Assembly: GCA_963733055.1 (NCBI GenBank)
Contig: CAVTBR010000002.1
Span: 416,001 to 480,000, forward strand
Origin: Candidatus Bathyarchaeota archaeon
Lineage (GTDB): Archaea; Thermoproteota; Bathyarchaeia; 40CM-2-53-6
Length of the DNA stretch: 64,000 nt
Reading direction: 5' to 3'
The notes beneath the pieces are model-generated. The model did no database searches. It saw only the letters and a list, made by a program, of their open reading frames with translations, and was not told where the DNA came from. The number at the start of each line of letters is the position of its first letter. The first letter of the stretch is position 1. This document shows positions 39,395 through 50,776 of the stretch, piece by piece. The position numbers and the translations under genes were made by a program.

Positions 39395-40525
39395 GTGAGC
39401 GGAACATTCCCGATTCGTCATTCTAGCTCGGAGGTAAGCAAGTCGGGAAAGATTCGGGTCGCCATCGTAGGGGTAGGCAACTGTGCCTCATCACTCGTTC
39501 AAGGGATAGAGTTCTACAAGAATGCGAAAGTGGATGAATTCATCCCCGGCTTAATGCATGTGAAATTGGGAGGTTACCACATTCGAGACGTGACCTTCAC
39601 TGCGGCTTTTGACGTAGACAAGAACAAGGTTGGGAAGGACCTTGGTGAAGCGATCTACGCAAAACCAAACAACACCATAAGGTTCGCAGACGTACCCAAG
39701 CTTGGGGTTCAAGTTCAAAGGGGTATGACCCACGACGGACTTGGAAAATATCTAAGTGAAATAATCGAAAAACATCCATCACACACCGTGGATGTAAGTC
39801 ACGTTTTGAAAGAGACGAAAACAGACGTGCTCCTCAACTATCTACCCGTCGGAAGCGAATTCGCAACTAAATGGTATATTGAACAGGCTCTCGACGCACA
39901 CTGCGCGGTCGTTAACTGCATCCCGGTATTCATCGCCCGAGAGAAGCGTTGGCAGGAGATCTTCGAAAAACGTGGCGTACCCGTGATCGGGGACGACATC
40001 AAATCGCAGGTTGGCGCTACAATAGTTCATAGGGTGTTGACCCAGCTGTTTAAGGACAGGGGGGTAAAGTTGGAACGAACTGCCCAATTAAATGTTGGCG
40101 GGAACACAGATTTCTTGAACATGCTTGAACGTGAAAGGCTAGAGAGTAAGAAGATCTCGAAGACGGGCGCGGTGACTTCGGTGCTCGACTACAAGTTGCC
40201 CCCTGAAAACGTCCACATAGGCCCAAGCGACTACGTACCTTGGCTCCACGACCGCAAATGGGCATACATCCGACTCGAAGGAACAACCTTCGGCAACGTT
40301 CCACTGAACGTTGAATTGAAACTCGAAGTGTGGGATTCACCAAACAGCGCCGGGGTCGTTATCGATGCGATCAGATGCGCTAAACTTGCCTTGGACAGAG
40401 GCATCAGCGGAGCACTCAAAGCACCATCAGCCTACTTTATGAAATCTCCACCTGAGCAATTTCCCGACGATGTCGCCAGACGAATGTTAGAGGAATTCAT
40501 CAAGGAACCTCAACGGAGGCCCTGA
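39395..40525 (+). CDS. ino1: myo-inositol-1-phosphate synthase
   Basis: [41 protein letters not shown]. Confidence 0.95.
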
Positions 40526-40635
40526 GGAGCACGATATTGGATGGGCTGCAAATTAAACTCGGTGTTCAGCAGCGTCCGAAAGGAACCAGATTTTCGGAAC
40601 CGCACTCAAACCTAAGTGCCAAGGAATCTAACATT

Positions 40636-41271
40636 CTATCCGAGCAGTGTTAATGCTGCGGCCATCGCAGAATGTTCTGCGAGTTCAGGACTGGGCGCAC
40701 TGACAATCGTGATCACGTCATTGTTACTCGGAGAAAACGTTTTTTGTAAATCCGCGAAAAGCGACTCATGTTGGTGCAGCGTCCAGCTTTCTCGTTCGCC
40801 CATGGGCATCACTAGCTCCCCGTTCTTGTAAACGAGTGTGCACGCACCCGTCGCTCCGACTCGAATAGCCGCGTCCCTCTGTTCGATGCCCCTCTTTACG
40901 AGCGCTCCAGACCCTCTAACGAGAACCGCTGCGCTTTCCTTGTCCAGCGCCAACTGCCTCGCGTTTATCGGGCGAGTCTCAGACAACTTTGATCTCAACG
41001 ACTTATAGAGCACTGTACCTCGTTGCGTGAGTACACATCCTCCCTTTGCCGTGCCGACGAGCTTCGCCTTTGTAAGATGCCTGATGATGGTTCGCCCTGC
41101 ACCTTCACCCACGCCAAGTTTTCTTGAGAGTTCGAGCCTTCCGATTGGCCCTTGGTCGCCAATGTAAAGAAGTGCACGAGAAACATGGACCGCGGAGAAG
41201 GCGGGTGCAGGACCTGGGCTGTCGGCTCTTGACACCGACAGGATTGCGTTGAGCACGCTCCGAGATGACAA
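40636..41271 (-). CDS. DUF4443/DUF2111-type archaeal wHTH protein
   Basis: IGRLELSRKLGVGEG, GIEQRDAAIRVGATGA. Confidence 0.8.
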   Translation of the reverse strand: MSSRSVLNAILSVSRADSPGPAPAFSAVHVSRALLYIGDQGPIGRLELSRKLGVGEGAGRTIIRHLTKAKLVGTAKGGCVLTQRGTVLYKSLRSKLSETRPINARQLALDKESAAVLVRGSGALVKRGIEQRDAAIRVGATGACTLVYKNGELVMPMGERESWTLHQHESLFADLQKTFSPSNNDVITIVSAPSPELAEHSAMAAALTLLG

Positions 41272-41294
41272 GAGTTAATCGCCTTCGAAAGGGA

Positions 41295-42488
41295 TTATTT
41301 TTTCTTCACGGCCGCCTTTTCCTTCGCTGTCTCACTCATCTTTCGGAATCTTCGTCTAACTTCCTGGAGGGTGGTGTCTTTCTTGCAAAAAGCAATCCGA
41401 ATCTTCCTCTCCCCCAACGCCTTGTCGTGGTAGAGGGCTTGAGCGGGCAAGACACCTACTCCGACCTTCTTCAATAGAAAGTCCGCAAATTGCATCCCAT
41501 CCCTGAACCTCTCAGGGGCGTCTACCAGGATGTAGTATGCGCCCTCCGGCCGAAGGTAGGCTAGCTTTGCCTCTTCAAGAATTTCCATGATGCTTCTTCG
41601 CTTTCGTTCGTAGGCTTCAGCCAACCTCTCGTAATAGTCTGAGGGGAAATTCAAGGCTGTGACAAGGGCCTCCTGCAACGGGTTAGGAGCACAGATCGTA
41701 AGGTAGTCGTGAACTTTCCGTATGGCGTCGGTAAGGCTTCTCTCAGCTATTGCCCAACCCACTCGCCACCCAGTTACGCTGTAAGTTTTCGAGGCGGCGT
41801 TCACCGTCACGGTTTTGTCGTGCATGTTCCCGAATGAACCGAGGCTAATGTGGCGTTTGCCGTCGTAGAGTATGTGCTCGTATATCTCGTCCGTGACCAC
41901 AACGGTGTCTTCGTCCTCGCAGAGATCGGCGATCAACTTCAGTTGTCCAGCCTCCAGGACGCGGCCGGTTGGATTATTCGGCGTGTTCAGCAGGAAGAGT
42001 TTCGGATGCTTTGCCATAACGCTCTTGAGAGTCTCTTCGTCAAGCTCTAGGTTTCGGCCCTTGAAAGGCACGTATAGCAACTTACAGCCCGCGAGGATTG
42101 CGTCTGGGACGTAGTTCTCGTAGAACGGATCAGTTACGACGACGTGATCGCCAGCGTTGGTTAGTGCAAAGATTGCCGCGGCGACTGCTTCAGTTGAACC
42201 GCATGTGACGGTCACGTTCTTTTCCACGTCCGAATCAATGCCGTTATACTCCTTCGCTTTCGCCGCGATAGCTTCCCTTAACCCTCGGTGGCCCCAGGTG
42301 ACCGAATACTGGTTAGACCCACGCCTAATCGCTTCGACGGCGGCTTCGACTAGCTTAGGGGATGGGATGAAGTCGGGCATTCCCTGGGAAAGATTGATCG
42401 CGTCGTACTGATCGCTAAGCCGCGTCATCTCACGAATCACTGATTCCGTGAAGAAGCTGAGTTTCTGGGATGCTGCCAAAGAAATCAC
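41295..42488 (-). CDS. class I/II PLP-dependent aminotransferase
   Basis: NLSQGMPD, NTPNNPTG, DEIY, SKTYSVTGWRVG, IRIAF. Confidence 0.95.
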   Translation of the reverse strand: MISLAASQKLSFFTESVIREMTRLSDQYDAINLSQGMPDFIPSPKLVEAAVEAIRRGSNQYSVTWGHRGLREAIAAKAKEYNGIDSDVEKNVTVTCGSTEAVAAAIFALTNAGDHVVVTDPFYENYVPDAILAGCKLLYVPFKGRNLELDEETLKSVMAKHPKLFLLNTPNNPTGRVLEAGQLKLIADLCEDEDTVVVTDEIYEHILYDGKRHISLGSFGNMHDKTVTVNAASKTYSVTGWRVGWAIAERSLTDAIRKVHDYLTICAPNPLQEALVTALNFPSDYYERLAEAYERKRRSIMEILEEAKLAYLRPEGAYYILVDAPERFRDGMQFADFLLKKVGVGVLPAQALYHDKALGERKIRIAFCKKDTTLQEVRRRFRKMSETAKEKAAVKKK

Positions 42489-42523
42489 CTATGGCATTGT
42501 GGTTTAGGTTTAAATGAGCATCG

Positions 42524-44096
42524 TCACGGATGACCAGTCGTCCTTCTACCCGAACCGCTAAGACGCCGTCGCGTTACAAGAACCAGAACTAATACCGCCC
42601 CGGTTGCGACGATCATGAACCAGGCTAGATTAGACGTCGTGAACGCTACCGGCGCTTGGCCGCTCACCTGGGTTCTGACCATAGCCCATGCTCTCACTGT
42701 GCCTGCGTCGAGTCCCAGCCCGAGTACGTATTGTCCAAGCGGTGTTCTTGGAGAGACGGTAATTTCGACTTGGGCTGGATTGTTGGCGACGTCCACGAGC
42801 GACGCGCCTGGTGGAGAGAAGGTCACATTGATGTCTTGAGGGGTATATGACGGCCACGAGTAAACGTAGGTCCCGTATCCGGCGCTTTGCACATTGCTCG
42901 CCGACAAAGTCAAACTTGTTTGCCCGCCCGCTTGCAGCTGCAAGTGGTTTTCAGAGGGGCTGGCAGTGAAGGGCACCGTTTTGTTCCCGTATACCACGCC
43001 AATCTTGTTACCGCTCCATTCAGTAAACCACACGTTACCATCCGGTGCCAGGGCGATCCATAGGGCGGTGCTGATTGGACCGGTTGGAATAGCGAATTCG
43101 AACATTGTTTGGGCGGTGGGATCGAGATACCCTACGCTGTTCCCGCCATGTTCCGCGAACCATACTCTGCCGACGCCGTCTATCAAGAGGTCGTTGGGTA
43201 TTGATATTGGATAGACTTGGGGTGGGGGTTCGTGGGTTGGGTAGCGGGTTATTTGCTGGGAGGTGGAGTTGAACTTCACAATCCAATTGCCACCGTGGTC
43301 AGCCACCCAAACGATTCCGTCAGGTGTAACCGCGATCCCGACGGGGGAACCAACGTACTGCGTGGGGTCTATGGAGGAAAAATGGTACTCGTTGAACACT
43401 TTCGTCTGCAGGTTGAACGTCGCGACTGACTCGTTGTAGGCTTCTGTAAACCACAAGGTTCCATGGCTGCCGAATGTTAGGTCCGCCGGGCCCGCAAACT
43501 GCGTGGGAACAACATATTCATCAAGTTTACCAGAGAGTGGGTCATACGACCCGATCCTATTCCCTAACAGTTCAGTAAACCAGAGCCGCCCTTCGGTATC
43601 TGAAATGATTCTAAACGGGAAGGATCCTGGGGTAGGAATCGGGATGACTGTGAAATTATTGTCGCTCGAGTTGAACCTTATCAGGCGTCCATTCCCGCCC
43701 GGCTCGATCGCGCCTCCGGGGGAAACGGATCCTTTGAGAGAGTACTGTGTTAACCAAACCGCCCCACTCAGATCGACGGTTATCCCCCACATGTCTCCCA
43801 CTCCGGGAACCGCATACTCCGAGAATGTATCTGTTCTTGGATCAAACCGACCAAGCTTACTCGCATTCGACTCGGTAAACCAAACAACCCCTTCCCGATC
43901 TACGGTTAGGGCGAGTGGGGCAGAGTTAGGTGTCGGAACACTATACTCGTCTATGTACCGCGGCAAAGGGGTAGCCGCTAACCGCGGAGTGTTGAGCCAT
44001 AACCGCGCTAGACATTGTTGACATCGCAATAACGAGAATAAAGCCAACAGCAAGAGAGTAATGATTACCGAGTTGCCGATTCCTGTTATGTTGCAA
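42524..44096 (-). CDS. membrane-anchored Vgb-like (streptogramin lyase family) beta-propeller; start uncertain, possible frameshift near 43968
   Basis: repeated G.VWFTE...N.IG..DP blades, C-terminal TM; signal-peptide-like segment in an alternative frame from TTG 44096. Confidence 0.75.
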
Positions 44097-44159
44097 CGGT
44101 TAGTTGCGCCAGGAACGGAATCTCCGATGGTTAAACAAACCTTTCTGAGCCGAGGGGTC

Positions 44160-44462
44160 TTAGTAGTGTAGGCCGCAGTTCTCACAGTAGAACCGGTTGT
44201 AGGTCGGAATCTCGGTGAGCGGCGTTCCGCAACTAGAGCAGACGTAAAGGTCACCTAAGGGTTCAAGCGGCGTACCAACCATGACGAGTTCAACTTCCTC
44301 GATTTGCTCTTCCGACAAACGACAACACGAACAGTTGTAACGGGTAGGAGGTTGAAAAAGCTTTGTGGAAAAATCATGCAGGTCCGCTTCAAGCCGCGGA
44401 AGTTCACGTGGAAGAGCCTCTAACTCGCAGCGTTCTGGAAAGCTTTTCTCTTCAACAAACAC
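44160..44462 (-). CDS. small protein with C-terminal Cys4 zinc ribbon (start uncertain; ATG 44282 gives a 40-aa version)
   Basis: CSSCGTPL..YNRFYCENCGLHY; divergent from tRNA-Pro. Confidence 0.5.
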   Translation of the reverse strand: MFVEEKSFPERCELEALPRELPRLEADLHDFSTKLFQPPTRYNCSCCRLSEEQIEEVELVMVGTPLEPLGDLYVCSSCGTPLTEIPTYNRFYCENCGLHY

Positions 44463-44491
44463 ATAAGGAACAGCCGTATCAGGCCTCGATA

Positions 44492-44569
44492 GGGGCCGTA
44501 GTCTAGCATGGTTATGATACGCGGCTTGGGCCCGCGAGGTCGCTGGTTCAAATCCGGCCGGCCCCACCA
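44492..44569 (+). tRNA. tRNA-Pro(TGG), intronless, CCA encoded
   Basis: acceptor GGGGCCG/CGGCCCC-A-CCA; anticodon arm CGCGG-CTTGGGC-CCGCG; T arm GCTGG-TTCAAAT-CCGGC. Confidence 0.97.
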
Positions 44570-45513
44570 ATTTGGTCGATCGACACTGGATTCAGCGTAG
44601 GGCAATATTTGGAAACTCTCTTCGCAATTCTCCCAACTGTGTGAAGCCGTTCCGCCTTCCGTTTGATTTTCATGTCTACACTTCGCTCGAACCTTTGACG
44701 ACAGCAGTTCCGTACGTAAATTACGTGCAAAACGCGATATTTGCGATGATAGACCTTGCCGTTTCTTGGACCTATGAGTATACCGGCCTTTTTCCATGAG
44801 TTTAATGTGTAATGAATGGCCAGTCGATCGAGAGCAAGTGTTACTAACTCAACGACCTCTTTTCGCGTGTTGAAGGCCCGAATCTTGGGGTTGGACCCAG
44901 TTATTGATATCGCGCCTTCAGCGTCCCAGAAACCACCAAGAAACCAGCCGGGGTAGCTGCCAATAATTGGTTTCAACAGGTCAGGGCACGCTCTTGAGGC
45001 TAAGAGAAAATCGTATAGCATCCTGTTGTTAGCGTAGACACTGTAACGTCCGTCCTTGCGACGGGAAAGATGCAACGGTTTTTGCCGCCGCAGAGTAATT
45101 GCCATAGACTCTGCGAACGCCTGCGCGAAGTCCACATCTTTGACAATTAGCCGCGTGTAGTGTTTCCATCTCTTTTTGTATAATACTAGCGTGCCATCAC
45201 CAATCCAGGCCCCAATTCCATAAGCGAGGTGTGGACCTACAATCGGCAACACATGTCTCCGTAGCGGATCATATCGCCCCGTCAACCAATTGACGACCTC
45301 ACCCTTCCCAACGCCAACTCTCCTAGCGATAGTACCGTACCCCATCCCTGTCCTCCGTAATTCCAACACCTGCCTATGCTCTCCAATCCTTCGCCAGATG
45401 CTATGATATCTATTGTATGAGCGGTCATCCAATAATCGCGCGACCAACGCGATACCGTGGCCGCCTAGCGATTCGAGAAGATTCACGAAGGGCGACGCCT
45501 CCGATTTGTTCAC
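44548..45513 (-). CDS. free-standing HTH plus double-motif LAGLIDADG homing endonuclease
   Basis: HTH QVLELRRTGMGYGTIARRVGVGKGEVVNWL; motif 1 LAYGIGAWIGDG; motif 2 FLGGFWDAEG; very basic; no intein termini. Confidence 0.9.
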   Translation of the reverse strand: MNKSEASPFVNLLESLGGHGIALVARLLDDRSYNRYHSIWRRIGEHRQVLELRRTGMGYGTIARRVGVGKGEVVNWLTGRYDPLRRHVLPIVGPHLAYGIGAWIGDGTLVLYKKRWKHYTRLIVKDVDFAQAFAESMAITLRRQKPLHLSRRKDGRYSVYANNRMLYDFLLASRACPDLLKPIIGSYPGWFLGGFWDAEGAISITGSNPKIRAFNTRKEVVELVTLALDRLAIHYTLNSWKKAGILIGPRNGKVYHRKYRVLHVIYVRNCCRQRFERSVDMKIKRKAERLHTVGRIAKRVSKYCPTLNPVSIDQIGGAGRI

Positions 45514-45558
45514 CGATGAGCCAAGGAATTAAGTCATGAAGGTGCTCTCGTCCCAAGA

Positions 45559-45589
45559 GTCGCTGGTTCTAATCCGGCCGGCCCCACCA
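45559..45589 (+). repeat. duplicated 3' end of tRNA-Pro (att-like site)
   Basis: GTCGCTGGTTCTAATCCGGCCGGCCCCACCA versus tRNA GTCGCTGGTTCAAATCCGGCCGGCCCCACCA. Confidence 0.95.
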
Positions 45590-45799
45590 CATCACTAATT
45601 AGTCATTGCGAATGAACCATTCACCTATTCCAAAACCTAGTTCGAGTTTTCTCGACCGGTAAGGCTGAATGTCTTGCACTCGTGTGAACCGCTCTGTCTT
45701 TCGGCATATCGTCTGGTCGTGTAGTACGCGTATCTTACTTGCCACACGCGTAGTTTGTAATGATTCGATGTGAATAATTCAAGCATACATGTTATAGGC

Positions 45800-45816
45800 A
45801 ACTACACGTTGTAGTT
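45800..45816. promoter_or_regulatory. putative BlaI-family operator 1
   Basis: AACTAC-ACGTT-GTAGTT just downstream of GTTATA. Confidence 0.7.
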
Positions 45817-45831
45817 AGTTGATGAAAAAAA

Positions 45832-46602
45832 TTGGTTCGAACATTCGCGAAAACGCGTGGATATGCTATACTCGGCATTGTCCTAATCATAGCAATTATA
45901 GCGGCAGGAGCAAACAGCAACGCCGTCTTGGCTGATGCCTGCACTGCGCAATTGAGCTACCCCATCATGCCCGCAGTGTACTCTTACTCTAACGTTCCAA
46001 TCGTAGTGCCCATGTCAGCAACCTGTACCACAGCTTACGGCAACCAAATATACGCAACAGGTAACGCGTACGACGCAACGTCAAACGCCGGCTTAGGCTC
46101 GGTGAGCACAGTTCTACAATCTGTCAACGGTGGAACCAACTTCAATGGACAATTAGGGTTCAACCTCCCGACAACAACGCAAGGGCACACCGTCACGATC
46201 TCCGTTTCAGTCTACAGTAACCAATACGGCAATCTGATAACCGCAACCAGCGAAACATTTCAGGTTGTGTCAGGAAGCCAACAGGTCACTACTACCACGG
46301 TAACTCAACCGTCCCCATACCCATACCCGTATCCAAACCAATACCCAACCCAGTATCAGTATCAAAACCCCTACCCGTACCAGACTCCTCCATACTCCCA
46401 GTACCCTTCACAACAGCGTCCCTACAGAAACCAATCGCAATATCAAACTCAATACCAGAACAACTCTTCCCTACTGGGTTACGTTGCGATAGCAGCAATA
46501 CTCGCAGCCGTCATAATCGCAACAGCAGGACTAGTCATTTACGGGCGAAGGCAGCAACCCCCTATGCTAACGTGGGTTCCGCCACCTCCACCACCTCGTT
46601 AG
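45832..46602 (+). CDS. secreted, membrane-anchored protein with Pro/Tyr/Gln-rich linker
   Basis: signal peptide, Cys-paired beta domain, PYPYPYPNQYPTQYQYQ, TM helix, poly-Pro tail. Confidence 0.7.
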   Translation: MVRTFAKTRGYAILGIVLIIAIIAAGANSNAVLADACTAQLSYPIMPAVYSYSNVPIVVPMSATCTTAYGNQIYATGNAYDATSNAGLGSVSTVLQSVNGGTNFNGQLGFNLPTTTQGHTVTISVSVYSNQYGNLITATSETFQVVSGSQQVTTTTVTQPSPYPYPYPNQYPTQYQYQNPYPYQTPPYSQYPSQQRPYRNQSQYQTQYQNNSSLLGYVAIAAILAAVIIATAGLVIYGRRQQPPMLTWVPPPPPPR

Positions 46603-46824
46603 ACCTAGAATAAGACGGCACCCAAGAAATTCCCATTTCTTAGCTCCCTTTCGATAACAACAATTTTCAAACTGCCTGTGCAGCAAGGCTACTTGCCCTA
46701 TGACTTTAGAAAGCCGCAACCGCGATGCAAATTCAAGACATGCATTCTCCACTGTGGTAACGATAAGGCTAAGCTCGGGGGAGCCGGAACCAATGCTTAC
46801 TAGAGCGTAACACGTAAATTTGCC

Positions 46825-46841
46825 AACTATGGCGTGTAGTT
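46825..46841. promoter_or_regulatory. putative BlaI-family operator 2
   Basis: AACTAT-GGCGT-GTAGTT abutting the ATG at 46842. Confidence 0.65.
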
Positions 46842-47582
46842 ATGGACAAGATGCCACCGAAACCGCCGACCGGCCCAGCAGTTCAGACCATAGACGTAAC
46901 GAAAGTCTATCGAGTCGGCCATACCGATTATCCAGCCCTGAAAGGAATCAACTTGAAGATTAATAGAGGGGAGTTTGTTGCGATAATGGGCCCTTCGGGC
47001 AGCGGCAAATCCACACTCCTAAACCTGATTGGGGCACTCGACCGGCCCACTTCTGGGCGGGTAATCATTGACGGAATCGACCTTCGAAAGTTAGGCGAGG
47101 ACAGCCTTGCTCTACTCCGGAATCGCAAGCTCGGATTCGTATATCAAACGTTCAACCTGATTCAAAGGCTCACAGCAATGGAGAATGTCGAGATGCCTCT
47201 CATCTCTCGTGGCATGCCAGAAAAGATTCGAAAGAACAGATCATCAAAGATGCTAAGCGCCGTGGGTCTTGGAACCAAAGGAAACAAGCGGCCAACTGAA
47301 CTTAGCGGCGGAGAACAACAGCGAGTCGCCATCGCCAGGGCACTAGTAACCAACCCATCCCTAGTCATCGCCGACGAACCAACGGGAAACCTGGATTCGA
47401 AAACCACCAGCGAAGTAGTTGACCAGTTTGTCCAAGCGAACAAACAGTTTGGGACAACCATACTTGTTGTTACCCACAACCCGGACATCGCGGAAAGAAC
47501 TCAACACGTGATCTCGATTCGGGACGGTCTAGTCGAAAAGGAACAGTACCTTCAAAGGTTGGATTCCTATTCCTTGGGTTGA
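46842..47582 (+). CDS. ABC transporter ATP-binding protein (LolD/MacB type)
   Basis: GPSGSGKST, LSGGEQQRVAIARAL, ADEPTGNLD, VTH. Confidence 0.95.
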   Translation: MDKMPPKPPTGPAVQTIDVTKVYRVGHTDYPALKGINLKINRGEFVAIMGPSGSGKSTLLNLIGALDRPTSGRVIIDGIDLRKLGEDSLALLRNRKLGFVYQTFNLIQRLTAMENVEMPLISRGMPEKIRKNRSSKMLSAVGLGTKGNKRPTELSGGEQQRVAIARALVTNPSLVIADEPTGNLDSKTTSEVVDQFVQANKQFGTTILVVTHNPDIAERTQHVISIRDGLVEKEQYLQRLDSYSLG

Positions 47583-48847
47583 GAAACATGCTGCTTACTG
47601 ATATGTTCAAGCTGGCAGCCAAAGCGCTGCTCGACCGGAAGATACGAAGCGTCCTAACCATTCTTGGAATAACCGTAGGGTCCGCCATAATTTTGGCATT
47701 AATTGCGAGCTCAAGCGGGCTTAGCGCGGGAATTACTGCTAACATTCAGAAGACTGGGGCAAACATACTGACTATAAGAAATGCGGGAGGTTTCTTTGAA
47801 GCTGGCTCCTCAAACACCTACCAGCTCAGTCAAACAGATATTACCTACTTGAAGAGCGTACCCGGTGTGGTTGCGGCCTATCCTTACTTCAATTATGGAG
47901 CCTCTATCCAGAACGGAGGTGCAACGCTTCAAGCTTCGGTGGTCGGAATTGATCTTTCAGCCCTCCCACTCTTGTACAATGGGTTGACCGTGGCTGAGGG
48001 CAGCATTCCTCTTTCAGGAGATACTACTTCCGCCGCGATCGGTTGGTCCATTGCAAATCCCACATCAGGAACGCCGATAGGCCTTCATCAGTTGGTTTCA
48101 ATGTCTCTTACCGGGATTAAGGGAGCCAAATCAGCGATCGCCTACTCGGTTCTTGCCAGCGCAATCCTCACCCAATACGGCACAGCTCTCTTCTCCAACA
48201 TTGACGATACAGTCTACATTTCATTTCAAGCGGCTACAATTCTTTCGAGGACTCCATACTTCAACGGAATCTACGTGGTCGTTGACAACACTGGAGATGT
48301 CGCGAACGTTCAGAATACAATTCAAACGTATTATGGAAACAATGTTCGGGTAATAAGCCCCGGACAGATTCTATCCAGCATTCAAGGAATCACAGGGCAA
48401 CTTACGCTATTCTTAGGCAGCATCGGAGCGGTGTCGTTGTTCGTGGCAACCGTTGGCATAGTCAACACAATGTACGTCTCCGTCATGGAACGCACCAGAG
48501 AAATCGGCATCCTGAAAGCATTAGGGTATCGACCAAAGCAAATCATGGGCATGTTCTTGTCAGAGGCCGCGCTAACGGGAGTAGTAGGGGGCATCTGCGG
48601 CCTAATTCTCGGATACGCACTCTCGTTCCTAATGGGCGGGTTTCTTGGAGGATTAGGAGGCGGCGGACCAAGATTTATCGGAGGCGGAGGTGGGGGAGGA
48701 TCAGCACCAAGTATTCAACCAGTCTTCTCAACAGACCTCATAATCTTCGCGCTCACATTCCCGGTTCTCCTAGCGACCATTGCAGGGCTCTACCCGGCGT
48801 GGAGAGCTTCGAGAATGAACCCGGTTGTCGCACTAAAGTACGAATAG
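47579..48847 (+). CDS. ABC transporter permease (MacB/FtsX type)
   Basis: RSVLTILGI, NTMYVSVMERTREIGILKALG, YPAWRASRMNPVVAL. Confidence 0.95.
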   Translation: MRNMLLTDMFKLAAKALLDRKIRSVLTILGITVGSAIILALIASSSGLSAGITANIQKTGANILTIRNAGGFFEAGSSNTYQLSQTDITYLKSVPGVVAAYPYFNYGASIQNGGATLQASVVGIDLSALPLLYNGLTVAEGSIPLSGDTTSAAIGWSIANPTSGTPIGLHQLVSMSLTGIKGAKSAIAYSVLASAILTQYGTALFSNIDDTVYISFQAATILSRTPYFNGIYVVVDNTGDVANVQNTIQTYYGNNVRVISPGQILSSIQGITGQLTLFLGSIGAVSLFVATVGIVNTMYVSVMERTREIGILKALGYRPKQIMGMFLSEAALTGVVGGICGLILGYALSFLMGGFLGGLGGGGPRFIGGGGGGGSAPSIQPVFSTDLIIFALTFPVLLATIAGLYPAWRASRMNPVVALKYE

Positions 48848-48918
48848 ACTGACCGGTTCCCTCGATTCAATCACATCCGCGACCGGACACAGTCATCCGG
48901 AGCCAGCTCAGCGAGTAC

Positions 48919-49824
48919 CTACGGGAAGCTTGATCCGAAGAAGGTACTGAATAGGTTTCGGAGAAAGGTCAGAATTAGCCCAATTACGCTGACGCCCTGA
49001 CCTCGGCCCCCTCCAGTTTGGGACGGCTTTATCACCTGAACCTGTCCAGCGGCCCCACCCACAATTGGGATTCCTGGGCGGTTATTGTCGGTAACGGACA
49101 CCTTGACGGTGACCGTGTAGTTTCCCGGCGCGAGATTCGGATTGAAGACGATCAAAATGCTGAAAGGCCTTGGAATGTTTGGATCAATCTCTCCTAGGAA
49201 TACGCTGTTCTGCGGGCCTGAAACGATAGAGTCTGATTCAACGGTGACGTTGGCGTTGTAGGATGCTAGGTTTCCGCTGTTCAGCACATTGCCCGAGATC
49301 GTCGTATTGCCTCCCGGATTAACGGTAGATGGAGTAAACTGAATTCCGTAAACCACCAAACTGATGTACCCTGTAACCGACACCCCCAACGAGTGGCTCT
49401 CCTGAGTGTAGGAAACATCTCCCAGCTGCTTGTATGTTCCCGTAATCGTGCCTTGGTAGGAGCTGCCGGCGGCGGAGGATGGAGCGTAGACGGGGAAGGT
49501 TACGGTTACGCTTTGTCCATATTGGATTGAATCATAATGCCAATGGTTGTCGCCTTGTATGACTAGAGGTGCGGGCAGGGAGACAGCAATGTCGACATCA
49601 TAGATGGCTATGTAGCCGCTGTAGCTGTTTGCAACTGTTACAGTCATTGTGTTGTTCAAACCCGCCACCAAAGCCTGTCCGGTCACGGAGACGGTTAGGT
49701 GGGCAGCGGTTTGGGCGTGGGCCGCGTCAGGGATTTGCGTGAGCAAAGGCAGTAGCAAAACTATGATTGACAGGACTCGGCATCGCGTGGACCTCTTCAA
49801 GTCCTTACGGCTCCTGAAGTGCAT
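48919..49824 (-). CDS. COG1361-like surface protein
   Basis: signal peptide (AHAQ), two Ig-like beta domains (NSGNLASYNANV, FLGEIDP, PGNYTV), C-terminal hydrophobic segment. Confidence 0.65.
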   Translation of the reverse strand: MHFRSRKDLKRSTRCRVLSIIVLLLPLLTQIPDAAHAQTAAHLTVSVTGQALVAGLNNTMTVTVANSYSGYIAIYDVDIAVSLPAPLVIQGDNHWHYDSIQYGQSVTVTFPVYAPSSAAGSSYQGTITGTYKQLGDVSYTQESHSLGVSVTGYISLVVYGIQFTPSTVNPGGNTTISGNVLNSGNLASYNANVTVESDSIVSGPQNSVFLGEIDPNIPRPFSILIVFNPNLAPGNYTVTVKVSVTDNNRPGIPIVGGAAGQVQVIKPSQTGGGRGQGVSVIGLILTFLRNLFSTFFGSSFP

Positions 49825-50776
49825 TTATTCTCTTATCGAGGGTCGGGTGCTTATCGAACAACCTGAGTAACGGGTTCGTGGCAACTGAGTCGAACAAGCA
49901 AGCGGTACCAATCGAAACGGCCGGCGCGGCGAAATAATTCTGGGATTCTCGAAGCTTCGAGAGAGCAGAGATTAGTGCGCCCCGCTCAGCAAGGTCGGCC
50001 GCCGTTCTATCCGCAAGGAACTCTCGGGCCCTGTAGACAGCAGGTTCGACTAGATGGCCGATCGGGTGTGCAAATAGTGCAACTCTGGCCGCGGTTGCGA
50101 ATGATCTTACTGCAAAATCATTATTCTTCACATGTGCCAACTCGTGCGCGAGGCAAGCATTCAGCTCGTCGGAGTTCAGTGATTCCAGCAGCCCCACCGA
50201 CACGGCCAACACGTATTCGCGCTTCGAGCGCGTGATGAAAGCAGCTGGGTCGCCTGAATCAATCAAGGTTACGTTTGGCGGAGCAATTCCCATGTTTTTG
50301 GAAAGCCTTTCCACGGAACTCGTTACTTCGGGCGGCGCGGTTTGAAAGGTCATTTCTGGAAATAGCCTTACGAGCGAAAGATGGGATTTTCTGAGTTCCA
50401 GAGACAAGGCGACACATACGGCCGCGACTGTGCCCACCGCAGCTAAGCCAACGTTCAGTGTGAAAAAGAAGGATACGAAATGCCGAACCTCCTCACCCTC
50501 GACGAATGAGGCATCGATCAGTTCGAGGTGTAACCAATTCGCGATTGACTGTAAGCTCTCGAAGAACATGATTCCTAGGACTGCGAGAAGAGCAGTAGAC
50601 TTGAAACGATACGAACGTCTTACGATGAATGCCAGGCCGAAAGCCGCGAATGTGAGACCTGGGAGAATTAACGCCGGTAACCATACGGATTGGTGAACGT
50701 TCAGGGGTGACGGGAATGGTGGAGGTCCTATCAGAAGCCACGCGAAAAACATGAGGACCCCGGGCGCATGTATCAT
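49805..50776 (-). CDS. M48/M56-family membrane zinc metalloprotease (HtpX/BlaR1-protease-like)
   Basis: TM helices, VSVGLL..ELNACLAHELAHVK, REFLAD, HPTLDKRI. Confidence 0.9.
   Translation of the reverse strand: MIHAPGVLMFFAWLLIGPPPFPSPLNVHQSVWLPALILPGLTFAAFGLAFIVRRSYRFKSTALLAVLGIMFFESLQSIANWLHLELIDASFVEGEEVRHFVSFFFTLNVGLAAVGTVAAVCVALSLELRKSHLSLVRLFPEMTFQTAPPEVTSSVERLSKNMGIAPPNVTLIDSGDPAAFITRSKREYVLAVSVGLLESLNSDELNACLAHELAHVKNNDFAVRSFATAARVALFAHPIGHLVEPAVYRAREFLADRTAADLAERGALISALSKLRESQNYFAAPAVSIGTACLFDSVATNPLLRLFDKHPTLDKRINALQEP

Follow-up and report, generated by a model that had tools for sequence, protein, structure and literature searches.

A probable integrase-independent homing-endonuclease element that supplies a replacement 3′ end to a tRNA-Pro gene in a bathyarchaeal genome

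In a 64,000-nt stretch of DNA from Candidatus Bathyarchaeota archaeon (GCA_963733055.1, contig CAVTBR010000002.1, positions 416,001-480,000; hereafter the window, from the genome labelled G000), a complete tRNA-Pro(TGG) gene is followed by one antisense gene for a LAGLIDADG endonuclease and then by a second copy of the tRNA 3′ end. We consider it probable that this cassette is a free-standing homing-endonuclease element which, independently of any integrase, occupies the tRNA-Pro(TGG) gene, supplies it with a replacement end and leaves the native end behind as a relic. On this interpretation, the cassette would comprise a short upstream region, a gene encoding a helix-turn-helix (HTH) region and LAGLIDADG motifs, and a replacement 3′ part of tRNA-Pro fused to the stop end of that gene. 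The tRNA in use would combine a host 5′ part with a cassette-borne 3′ part, the native 3′ end lying 1 kb away. The predicted endonuclease would cut cassette-free tRNA-Pro alleles. Repair templated by the occupied allele would then transfer both the replacement end and the endonuclease gene to the cut allele, homology being provided by the tRNA 5′ part on one side and by the relic with the downstream native flank on the other. Such a transfer would require no integrase, and the essential tRNA would stay intact through the insertion. Because the replacement end overlaps the endonuclease stop codon, end and gene would always travel together. In this scheme, we infer the cleavage activity, the cut site, the repair pathway and the passage of DNA between cells.

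Results

Organization of the tRNA-Pro(TGG) locus

The tRNA-Pro(TGG) gene is the sole tRNA gene in the window. No second tRNA-Pro(TGG) was found in the genome, and a genome-wide search with the gene gave, elsewhere, matches to its 3′ part only. Two direct copies of a 31-nt repeat are present with a period of 1020 bp (Table 1). They are identical at 30 of 31 positions, and the single mismatch sits in the T loop, which reads TTCAAAT in the proximal copy and TTCTAAT in the distal one. When up to three mismatches were allowed, no third copy was found in the window; two matches occurred in 0 of 100 shuffles (chance expectation 0), and the repeat is present in the whole 2.88-Mb genome in these two copies alone. 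A first-pass annotation, made from the letters of the window, had described a tRNA-Pro(TGG) followed by a 30/31 copy of its 3′ end 1020 bp away, and on this ARAGORN, Rfam, the repeat search and the shuffles agree. The proximal copy is read here as a replacement 3′ part carried along with the endonuclease gene, and the distal copy as the displaced native tRNA-Pro 3′ end, a non-functional relic.

The only long open reading frame (ORF) between the repeats (44548-45513, minus strand) is the endonuclease gene. Over its last seven codons and stop it runs 22 nt into the tRNA 3′ end, and the TGA stop lies in the antisense of the T loop. The genome holds six matches to the tyrosine-recombinase family (PF00589), all outside the window and the nearest about 52 kb from the cassette; the earlier statement that the cassette lacks an integrase is thus upheld. 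One of these matches (contig C3, 545976-546404) lies about 340 nt from a tRNA-3′-like match (546744-546777), and this pair looks like a classical integrase element. An Rfam scan of positions 40000-50000 returned no group I or other intron family at E≤1. Moreover, the tRNA is complete and colinear without the cassette and the endonuclease gene is antisense to it, so that the gene is not inside an intron interrupting the target RNA. The annotation had also stated that no sense-strand intron is present; this is correct for the tRNA-Pro of the window, but relatives carry at this place a short sense-strand insertion that we read as an intron (see below).

Table 1. Features of the cassette, in window coordinates
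Feature	Position	Strand	Evidence
tRNA-Pro(TGG), complete, CCA encoded, intron-less; functional target	44492..44569	+	ARAGORN; Rfam tRNA 60 bits, E 2.8e-11
Proximal 31-nt repeat: variable loop from G46, T arm, acceptor strand, CCA	44539..44569	+	Repeat search
HTH and double-motif LAGLIDADG endonuclease gene (predicted), 321 aa, GTG start, TGA stop	44548..45513	-	ORF, Pfam, family alignment
Divergent segment, C-terminal third of endonuclease	44570..44914	-	38-65% nt identity to G019, below host gene
LAGLIDADG motif 2, residues 189-201, ..GWFLGGFWDAEGA.., E199	44911..44949	-	Family alignment
Recently exchanged segment	44915..45514	-	60-nt windows: mostly 93-100% nt identity to G019, few 82-90%
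LAGLIDADG motif 1, residues 96-108, ..LAYGIGAWIGDGT.., D106	45190..45228	-	Family alignment
N-terminal helical/HTH region, residues ~39-89	45247..45399	-	Sub-threshold Pfam; model helices 39-54, 59-66, 70-78
Upstream region of endonuclease gene, holding GAATTAAGTCA at 45526-45536	45514..45558	-	Sequence comparison
Distal 31-nt repeat, T-loop mismatch	45559..45589	+	Repeat search

The predicted endonuclease

The 321-aa protein matched Pfam LAGLIDADG_3 (E 8.2e-9; 36 bits, cut-off 22.5), and its two motif stretches read ..AWIGDGTL.. and ..GFWDAEGA... Across 13 family proteins, L96, G101, G105, D106 and G107 of motif 1 and G200 of motif 2 are invariant, and D197 and E199 of motif 2 are kept in at least 90%. 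When the family profile was compared with I-DmoI (E 1.2e-10), D106 (GDG) aligned to the catalytic D21 and E199 (AEG) to E117. In the AlphaFold2 model (pLDDT 83.8, pTM 0.80), a helical region at the N-terminus precedes two alpha-beta-beta-alpha-beta-beta-alpha units, and the tail that comes from the tRNA antisense (residues 307-321) is disordered. With this model, the Foldseek matches listed down to rank 34 were all I-DmoI (probability 1.00; template modelling (TM) score 0.64-0.70, target-normalised), and WhiA appeared at rank 48. Judged by its motifs with their acids and by its modelled fold, the protein is a predicted monomeric two-motif LAGLIDADG endonuclease. The first-pass annotation had proposed an antisense 321-aa protein with an N-terminal HTH and two acid-bearing LAGLIDADG motifs; the ORF, the Pfam match and the conserved D106 and E199 bear this out, while the Pfam HTH matches (residues 44-89) were sub-threshold. 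In six of eight endonuclease pairs, the ratio of nonsynonymous to synonymous substitution rates (dN/dS) was 0.13-0.24, and dS was saturated in the other two. By these ratios, the family is under purifying selection.

The upstream region contains GAATTAAGTCA, a string common to the window, to the congener G019 and to one distant family member. It is possibly a TATA-like promoter for a leaderless mRNA.

Empty and occupied loci in the genus

The gene order NHL-repeat gene, Zn-ribbon gene, tRNA-Pro(TGG) and ABC ATPase gene is conserved in the genus. In the congener G013, the ABC gene follows 69 nt after tRNA-Pro, and the site is empty. In G019, the cassette is present between tRNA-Pro and the ABC gene, and its endonuclease has 78% aa identity to that of G000. 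The distal copy in G019 has decayed to ..TCCGGTGCTAAGCCCCACCA, and the 73 nt between this copy and the ABC gene are homologous to the tRNA-ABC spacer of G013. The annotation had advised a comparison of occupied and empty tRNA-Pro loci in relatives; this comparison yielded one allele of each kind, and the cassette was their sole difference.

In 15 genus members with the same tRNA-Pro(TGG) type (L004 and L023-L037 compared), a 24-27-nt insertion was found next to position 45/46 (window 44537/44538). The insertion forms a hairpin with paired changes between lineages (GCTGC/GCAGC versus GTTGC/GCAAC) and is probably, to judge from this pattern, a non-canonical tRNA intron. The tRNA-Pro of the window alone of its type is without it, and the proximal repeat starts exactly at that point. 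In contrast, the tRNA-Pro of G019 has both the short intron, as we read it, and the cassette. The description of the window tRNA as the only intron-less tRNA-Pro(TGG) of the genus was withdrawn, as G001, G006, G010 and G020 have a distinct intron-less type.

Recurrence of the cassette family at other targets

A search with the single protein found a homologue in 10 of 61 relatives, and a profile built from 13 family sequences found matches (E≤1e-8) in 22 of 59 genomes of taxonomic family f1. Weaker profile matches in frames longer than 1000 aa are likely inteins. We scanned 40 loci of family f1, of which 35 hold the family frame at E≤1e-20. Loci were oriented with the endonuclease on the minus strand, and the stop-end neighbour was read with the aid of Rfam and ARAGORN. 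This neighbour is a tRNA in 26 copies, the 3′ end of a superoxide dismutase (SOD) gene in three (convergent), the 5′ end of a DUF35 gene in five (co-directional) and unclear in one. At 20 loci the tRNA is convergent, with its 3′ end abutting or overlapping the endonuclease stop; these targets are Pro(TGG), Thr(GGT), Val(GAC), Arg(TCG) and four further tRNA types that could not be named with confidence. At six loci a co-directional tRNA lies just past the stop (five Pro(CGG), one Val(CAC)). By our estimate, chance would place a tRNA within 260 nt of about 1% of gene ends in a genome of 2-3 Mb that has about 45 tRNA genes. Program calls (Rfam, ARAGORN) account for 19 of the 26 tRNA assignments. 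At its gathering threshold, Rfam misses multi-intron tRNAs, some of which appear only as weak tmRNA-like matches, and ARAGORN anticodons are unreliable for intron-bearing genes (the tRNA-Pro of G019 was called Ala).

The intact target is always at the stop end of the endonuclease; the relic, where present, lies beyond its start. To look for relics, we aligned the stop-side flank locally to the sequence past the start, and the maximum score among 30 shuffles set the threshold. A second copy of the flank exceeded this maximum in 15 of the 35 loci, and six strong duplicates (31-90 nt) scored about twice the shuffle maximum. Only 31-290 nt separate the duplicates from the reading frame, too little for an integrase or any other gene. 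The repeats linked to tRNA and SOD genes are the target's own end, namely the 3′ end when the endonuclease is convergent and the 5′ end when it is co-directional. Those linked to SOD comprise 62-90 nt of coding sequence at about 75-80% identity. The annotation had further asked how often homologues adjoin a tRNA with a duplicated end and no integrase, and these counts give the answer: the homologues are strongly linked to tRNA genes whose ends are duplicated with no space left for an integrase.

At the tRNA-Pro(CGG) loci L016, L059, L074, L076 and L078, the endonuclease gene precedes the tRNA in the same orientation, with a duplicated 5′ fragment of the tRNA on its far side; these cassettes seem to carry a replacement 5′ end. 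In L016, a 990-nt 'intron' called by ARAGORN corresponds to the duplicated 5′ fragment plus the endonuclease. Read along the sense strand of the endonuclease, L007/L046 (G001:C26) holds first a tRNA 5′ fragment (GGGCCGG..), then the endonuclease and a complete tRNA-Val(CAC), and last a tRNA 3′ end with an acceptor strand that matches the 5′ fragment. Both the endonuclease and an entire tRNA may here be enclosed by a split tRNA gene.

Chimeric target genes

In G004, the upstream flank, 5′ exon and intron of tRNA-Val(GAC) are shared, bar one base, with the nearest relatives G018 and G021. However, its T arm (GAGAG/CTCTC) is of the type found in distant congeners, whereas G018 and G021 have GCCGG/CCGGC. 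The relic in G004 has a third T stem, GATGG/CCGTC, which is still paired and matches neither type. A similar pattern was observed for SOD. The SOD C-terminus beside an endonuclease (G001, G007, G021) reads ..NW/FDDVAxRFxKAKK; without an endonuclease (G000, G004, G013, G015, G018, G019, G020) it reads ..NWSDVDxRFxKAKH/R and is followed by a hairpin. In G007, and in G007 only, the relic is of the native type (..AYVDKWWEVVNWADVEKRFDKAKH). As read from these alignments, the G004 tRNA-Val and the SOD targets are chimeric, with an end of foreign type. The functional and relic ends of the window differ by 1 nt and are too alike for their origin to be read, although the functional end is without the insertion of the 15 relatives.

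The SOD genes of G011, G014 and G016 share the endonuclease-type C-terminus (..DDVAxRFxKAKK). An endonuclease remnant lies beside the SOD gene in G011 (C4:195868-196134), and the SOD gene of G022 has a native-type end followed by apparent antisense endonuclease-tail sequence. No intact endonuclease was found at the SOD loci of G011, G014, G016 and G022 (L107, L110, L113, L114). These loci may represent stages of decay after invasion.

Horizontal movement and a mosaic gene

For the flanking ABC gene, dS was 0.91 between G000 and G019, 1.03 between G000 and G013, and 0.395 between G019 and G013; the occupied G019 is therefore closer to the empty G013 than to G000. For endonuclease residues 1-195, G000 and G019 gave a dS of 0.16 and a dN/dS of 0.18. 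The low endonuclease dS, set against 0.91 for the ABC gene (82% nt identity), points to recent horizontal movement.

The similarity does not extend over the whole gene. In the C-terminal third, G000 and G019 have 49% aa identity over 104 codons. Given this contrast between the exchanged 5′ two thirds and the divergent remainder, the endonuclease gene is, by sequence comparison, a mosaic in which a recently exchanged N-terminal two thirds, together with the upstream region, is joined to an old, divergent C-terminal third adjoining the tRNA. Contigs of the peat metagenome runs X2 and X4 match 44914-45539 at about 94% and have the G019-type arrangement: 336 unlike letters replace 44573-44914, and past them the X4 contig reaches a tRNA, with a gap of 25 nt. 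In its C-terminal third, the G000-type endonuclease resembles P0023. The C-terminal third was apparently swapped between two tRNA-Pro cassettes. Among contigs of four sequencing runs, none of which covers the whole stretch, no joint marking a 1020-bp circle was seen.

Phylogeny and distribution

In a tree of 34 of the 35 copies (one copy shorter than 200 aa was left out), the clades each correspond to one target; target labels had been set from the flanks before the tree was built. Beyond family f1, the endonuclease family was detected at E≤1e-30 in 34 of 401 sampled genomes of the phylum; these genomes are concentrated in four other taxonomic families and are often multi-copy. Seven of them (G178, G218, G253, G267, G299, G328 and G417) have at least five family copies each, five candidates per genome having been scored, which suggests family expansions in other families of the phylum. 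At the stop end of the endonuclease, a convergent tRNA was present in 11 and a co-directional tRNA in one of the 29 non-f1 loci examined. In a library of 5.8 billion proteins, the profile matched 42 clusters within the sensitivity of a word-based search; where given, the cluster names are LAGLIDADG family homing endonuclease, intein-encoded endonuclease-like protein or hypothetical protein.

Neighbouring sequences in the window

The promoter region of the G000 ABC gene (..TAACACGTAAATTTGCCAACTATGGCGTGTAGTT) is found at about 46807-46842, and an extra 1.2 kb must therefore have been inserted between the relic and the ABC gene. This segment (45590-46805) is missing from G013 and G019 and holds an ORF (45832-46602, plus strand) for a 256-aa, low-complexity, Q/Y/P-rich protein with hydrophobic ends. 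The sequence upstream of this ORF, at about 45800-45825, resembles the upstream region of the ABC gene itself, and many metagenome contigs match only 45788-45896 and then diverge from the window. On the other side of the cassette, a listed 136-aa ORF (44160-44570, minus strand) overlaps the tRNA. Its C-terminal Zn-ribbon part (about residues 70-136) is conserved in relatives, and probably only this part is real, the N-terminal part being a translation of the tRNA antisense.

Discussion

The interpretation favoured by the first-pass annotation, a selfish element that brings its own replacement tRNA 3′ end, gains support from the empty locus of G013, from the recurrent linkage to tRNA genes and from an endonuclease that is closer between species than the gene flanking it. 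Integrases classically leave directly repeated tRNA 3′ ends as their att (attachment) signature, and the annotation had named a relic of a larger island or a satellite mobilised by an integrase in trans as alternatives. The window repeats, identical but for one letter, are att-like, and one of the six recombinase matches in this genome does lie beside a tRNA-3′-like sequence. Nevertheless, a tyrosine-integrase element from which a deletion left the endonuclease between attL and attR, or a satellite dependent on an integrase elsewhere, appears very improbable to us. There is no integrase in the window, and G013 and G019 differ by the cassette alone. The one-gene layout recurs in 35 loci at many targets, with relics so close to the frame that an integrase would not fit. 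At SOD, a protein-coding end, the duplicates are long, diverged coding segments and not short identical cores; the copies of the tRNA-Val T arm differ by paired changes; and the endonuclease always adjoins the intact target.

A different origin, from an endonuclease-bearing bulge-helix-bulge tRNA intron near position 45/46 that was later rearranged, would explain the short introns of the relatives as remains after endonuclease loss. The repeat does start exactly where the 15 relatives have their insertion, the tRNA-Val relic of G004 starts within about 2-3 nt of the 3′ exon start, and the closest solved relative, I-DmoI, is labelled intron-encoded in its PDB entry. Moreover, the relics of G000 and G019 are both preceded by GGTGCT, which resembles the intron start TGCT, although this resemblance is too short for significance. 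We regard such a history as very improbable: the endonuclease is antisense to a tRNA that is complete without it, G019 has short intron and cassette together, the tRNA-Thr and tRNA-Arg relic boundaries are off the intron sites, and the SOD and DUF35 targets are intron-less. It could also be supposed that the protein is a domesticated LAGLIDADG DNA-binding protein, such as a WhiA-like regulator or a maturase-like factor, residing at tRNA loci where the duplication is incidental. The extra HTH region, the presence of WhiA among the structural matches and the constraint implied by the dN/dS values are in its favour, but both catalytic acids are conserved, the distribution is patchy in the single-protein and profile searches alike with an empty site in a congener, there is a signal of horizontal transfer, several copies are pseudogenes, and SOD and DUF35 are also targets, with chimeric target ends. 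Among the explanations weighed, we hold domestication to be the least probable.

Several observations count against the homing-endonuclease interpretation itself. If a site of about 20 bp fell entirely within the repeat, the enzyme would cut the occupied allele too; given the 30/31 identity, immunity of the occupied allele must depend on the junction or on the single T-loop change. Seven of the 26 tRNA assignments were made by eye or by homology to called tRNAs. A tblastn search found no duplicated DUF35 5′ end at the five DUF35-linked copies, and the 29 non-f1 loci gave no convincing relic, as the three scores over the shuffle maximum (26 versus 23-24) came from loci with a mis-set end coordinate. 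Internal stops in L055 and L075 and the remnant in G011 mark pseudogene copies, so that not all copies are active. The dS contrast is based on one flanking gene, and the contigs of the four sequencing runs, none of which covers the whole stretch, showed no empty allele from this species. Finally, the clustering by target is supporting but not decisive, as vertical descent at one locus gives the same pattern.

A broader proposition, which we put forward only tentatively and think doubtful, is that these cassettes belong to a class of mobile elements, integrase-independent and widespread in Thermoproteota, that homes into tRNA genes and occasionally into protein-coding ends by providing a replacement end, swapping tRNA segments between lineages and creating or erasing non-canonical introns. 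Part of the same proposition, and no firmer when the two are taken jointly, is that the cassette-borne end of the window removed the 45/46 intron that all 15 same-type relatives have kept. Within it, the short 45/46 intron may itself decide whether an allele can be cut. If this broader proposition is true, many orphan tRNA 3′ fragments now read as att scars would be relics left by endonucleases.

Duplications of tRNA ends in prokaryotic genomes are routinely taken as the footprint of an integrase. A homing endonuclease would provide a second route to this footprint, and the strategy, known from fungal mitochondria, of joining an endonuclease to a replacement gene end would be extended to archaeal chromosomes and to RNA genes. 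It would also offer a mechanism for chimeric tRNA genes and possibly for the gain or loss of tRNA introns. Moreover, dozens of natural LAGLIDADG enzymes grouped by target (tRNAs, SOD, DUF35) form a comparative set for shifts in specificity.

Among known systems, the integrated mobile genetic elements of thaumarchaea (PMC6563490) resemble the cassette, as far as the main text of that source describes them, in that the insertion is bounded by directly repeated tRNA 3′ ends and leaves the tRNA intact. In contrast to them, the cassette is 1 kb long with one gene and no integrase, and the duplicates of its family are diverged, variable in length and found also at protein-coding ends; the terms LAGLIDADG and homing are absent from that main text, supplements aside. 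I-DmoI is the closest solved relative in sequence and fold (E 1.2e-10, TM score about 0.67), having two motifs in one chain and catalytic D and E residues that align. Unlike I-DmoI and other archaeal intron-encoded monomeric LAGLIDADG enzymes, the cassette lies in no intron or intein, it targets the end of a tRNA gene rather than an rRNA gene, and its protein is enlarged by an HTH region of about 90 residues. In the portion of PMC2330249 used here, T4 SegB is a free-standing phage homing endonuclease of the GIY-YIG family that acts in a tRNA region. Like the cassette, whose cutting is inferred, it spreads its own gene and DNA of the tRNA region by cutting genomes without it. It differs in nuclease family, in residing in a phage genome and in having, within that portion, no duplicated or replaced tRNA end.

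The closest parallel is provided by the mobile open reading frames (mORFs) of fungal mitochondria, described in the parts of PMC3630166 used here as free-standing LAGLIDADG or GIY-YIG endonuclease genes accompanied by a C-terminal gene segment that serves as a replacement (Glomus atp6, atp9, cox2 and nad3; Allomyces macrogynus atp6). In both systems, on our reading of the cassettes, one endonuclease gene stands at the end of an essential gene, the inserted end is used and the native end is a relic beyond the endonuclease; hybrid targets with a foreign-type end occur (in the archaeal family at tRNA-Val and SOD genes), close relatives differ in presence or absence, and there is no integrase. The archaeal cassettes likewise have target ends flanking the endonuclease and presence or absence among relatives with a sign of horizontal spread. 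Unlike mORFs, they reside in archaeal chromosomes, have mostly tRNA targets and encode an N-terminal HTH region; the endonuclease is usually antisense and convergent, with its stop inside the tRNA, rather than fused in frame; and some members, at tRNA-Pro(CGG), seem to carry a replacement 5′ end. In literature covered mostly at the level of abstracts, no archaeal chromosomal LAGLIDADG family that targets tRNA ends with replacement ends was found. As far as these sources extend, the principle is already known from fungal mitochondria and free-standing endonucleases are known from phages, and the archaeal tRNA-end variant is new. By analogy of layout, we regard the cassette as the archaeal chromosomal counterpart of the fungal mitochondrial mORFs.

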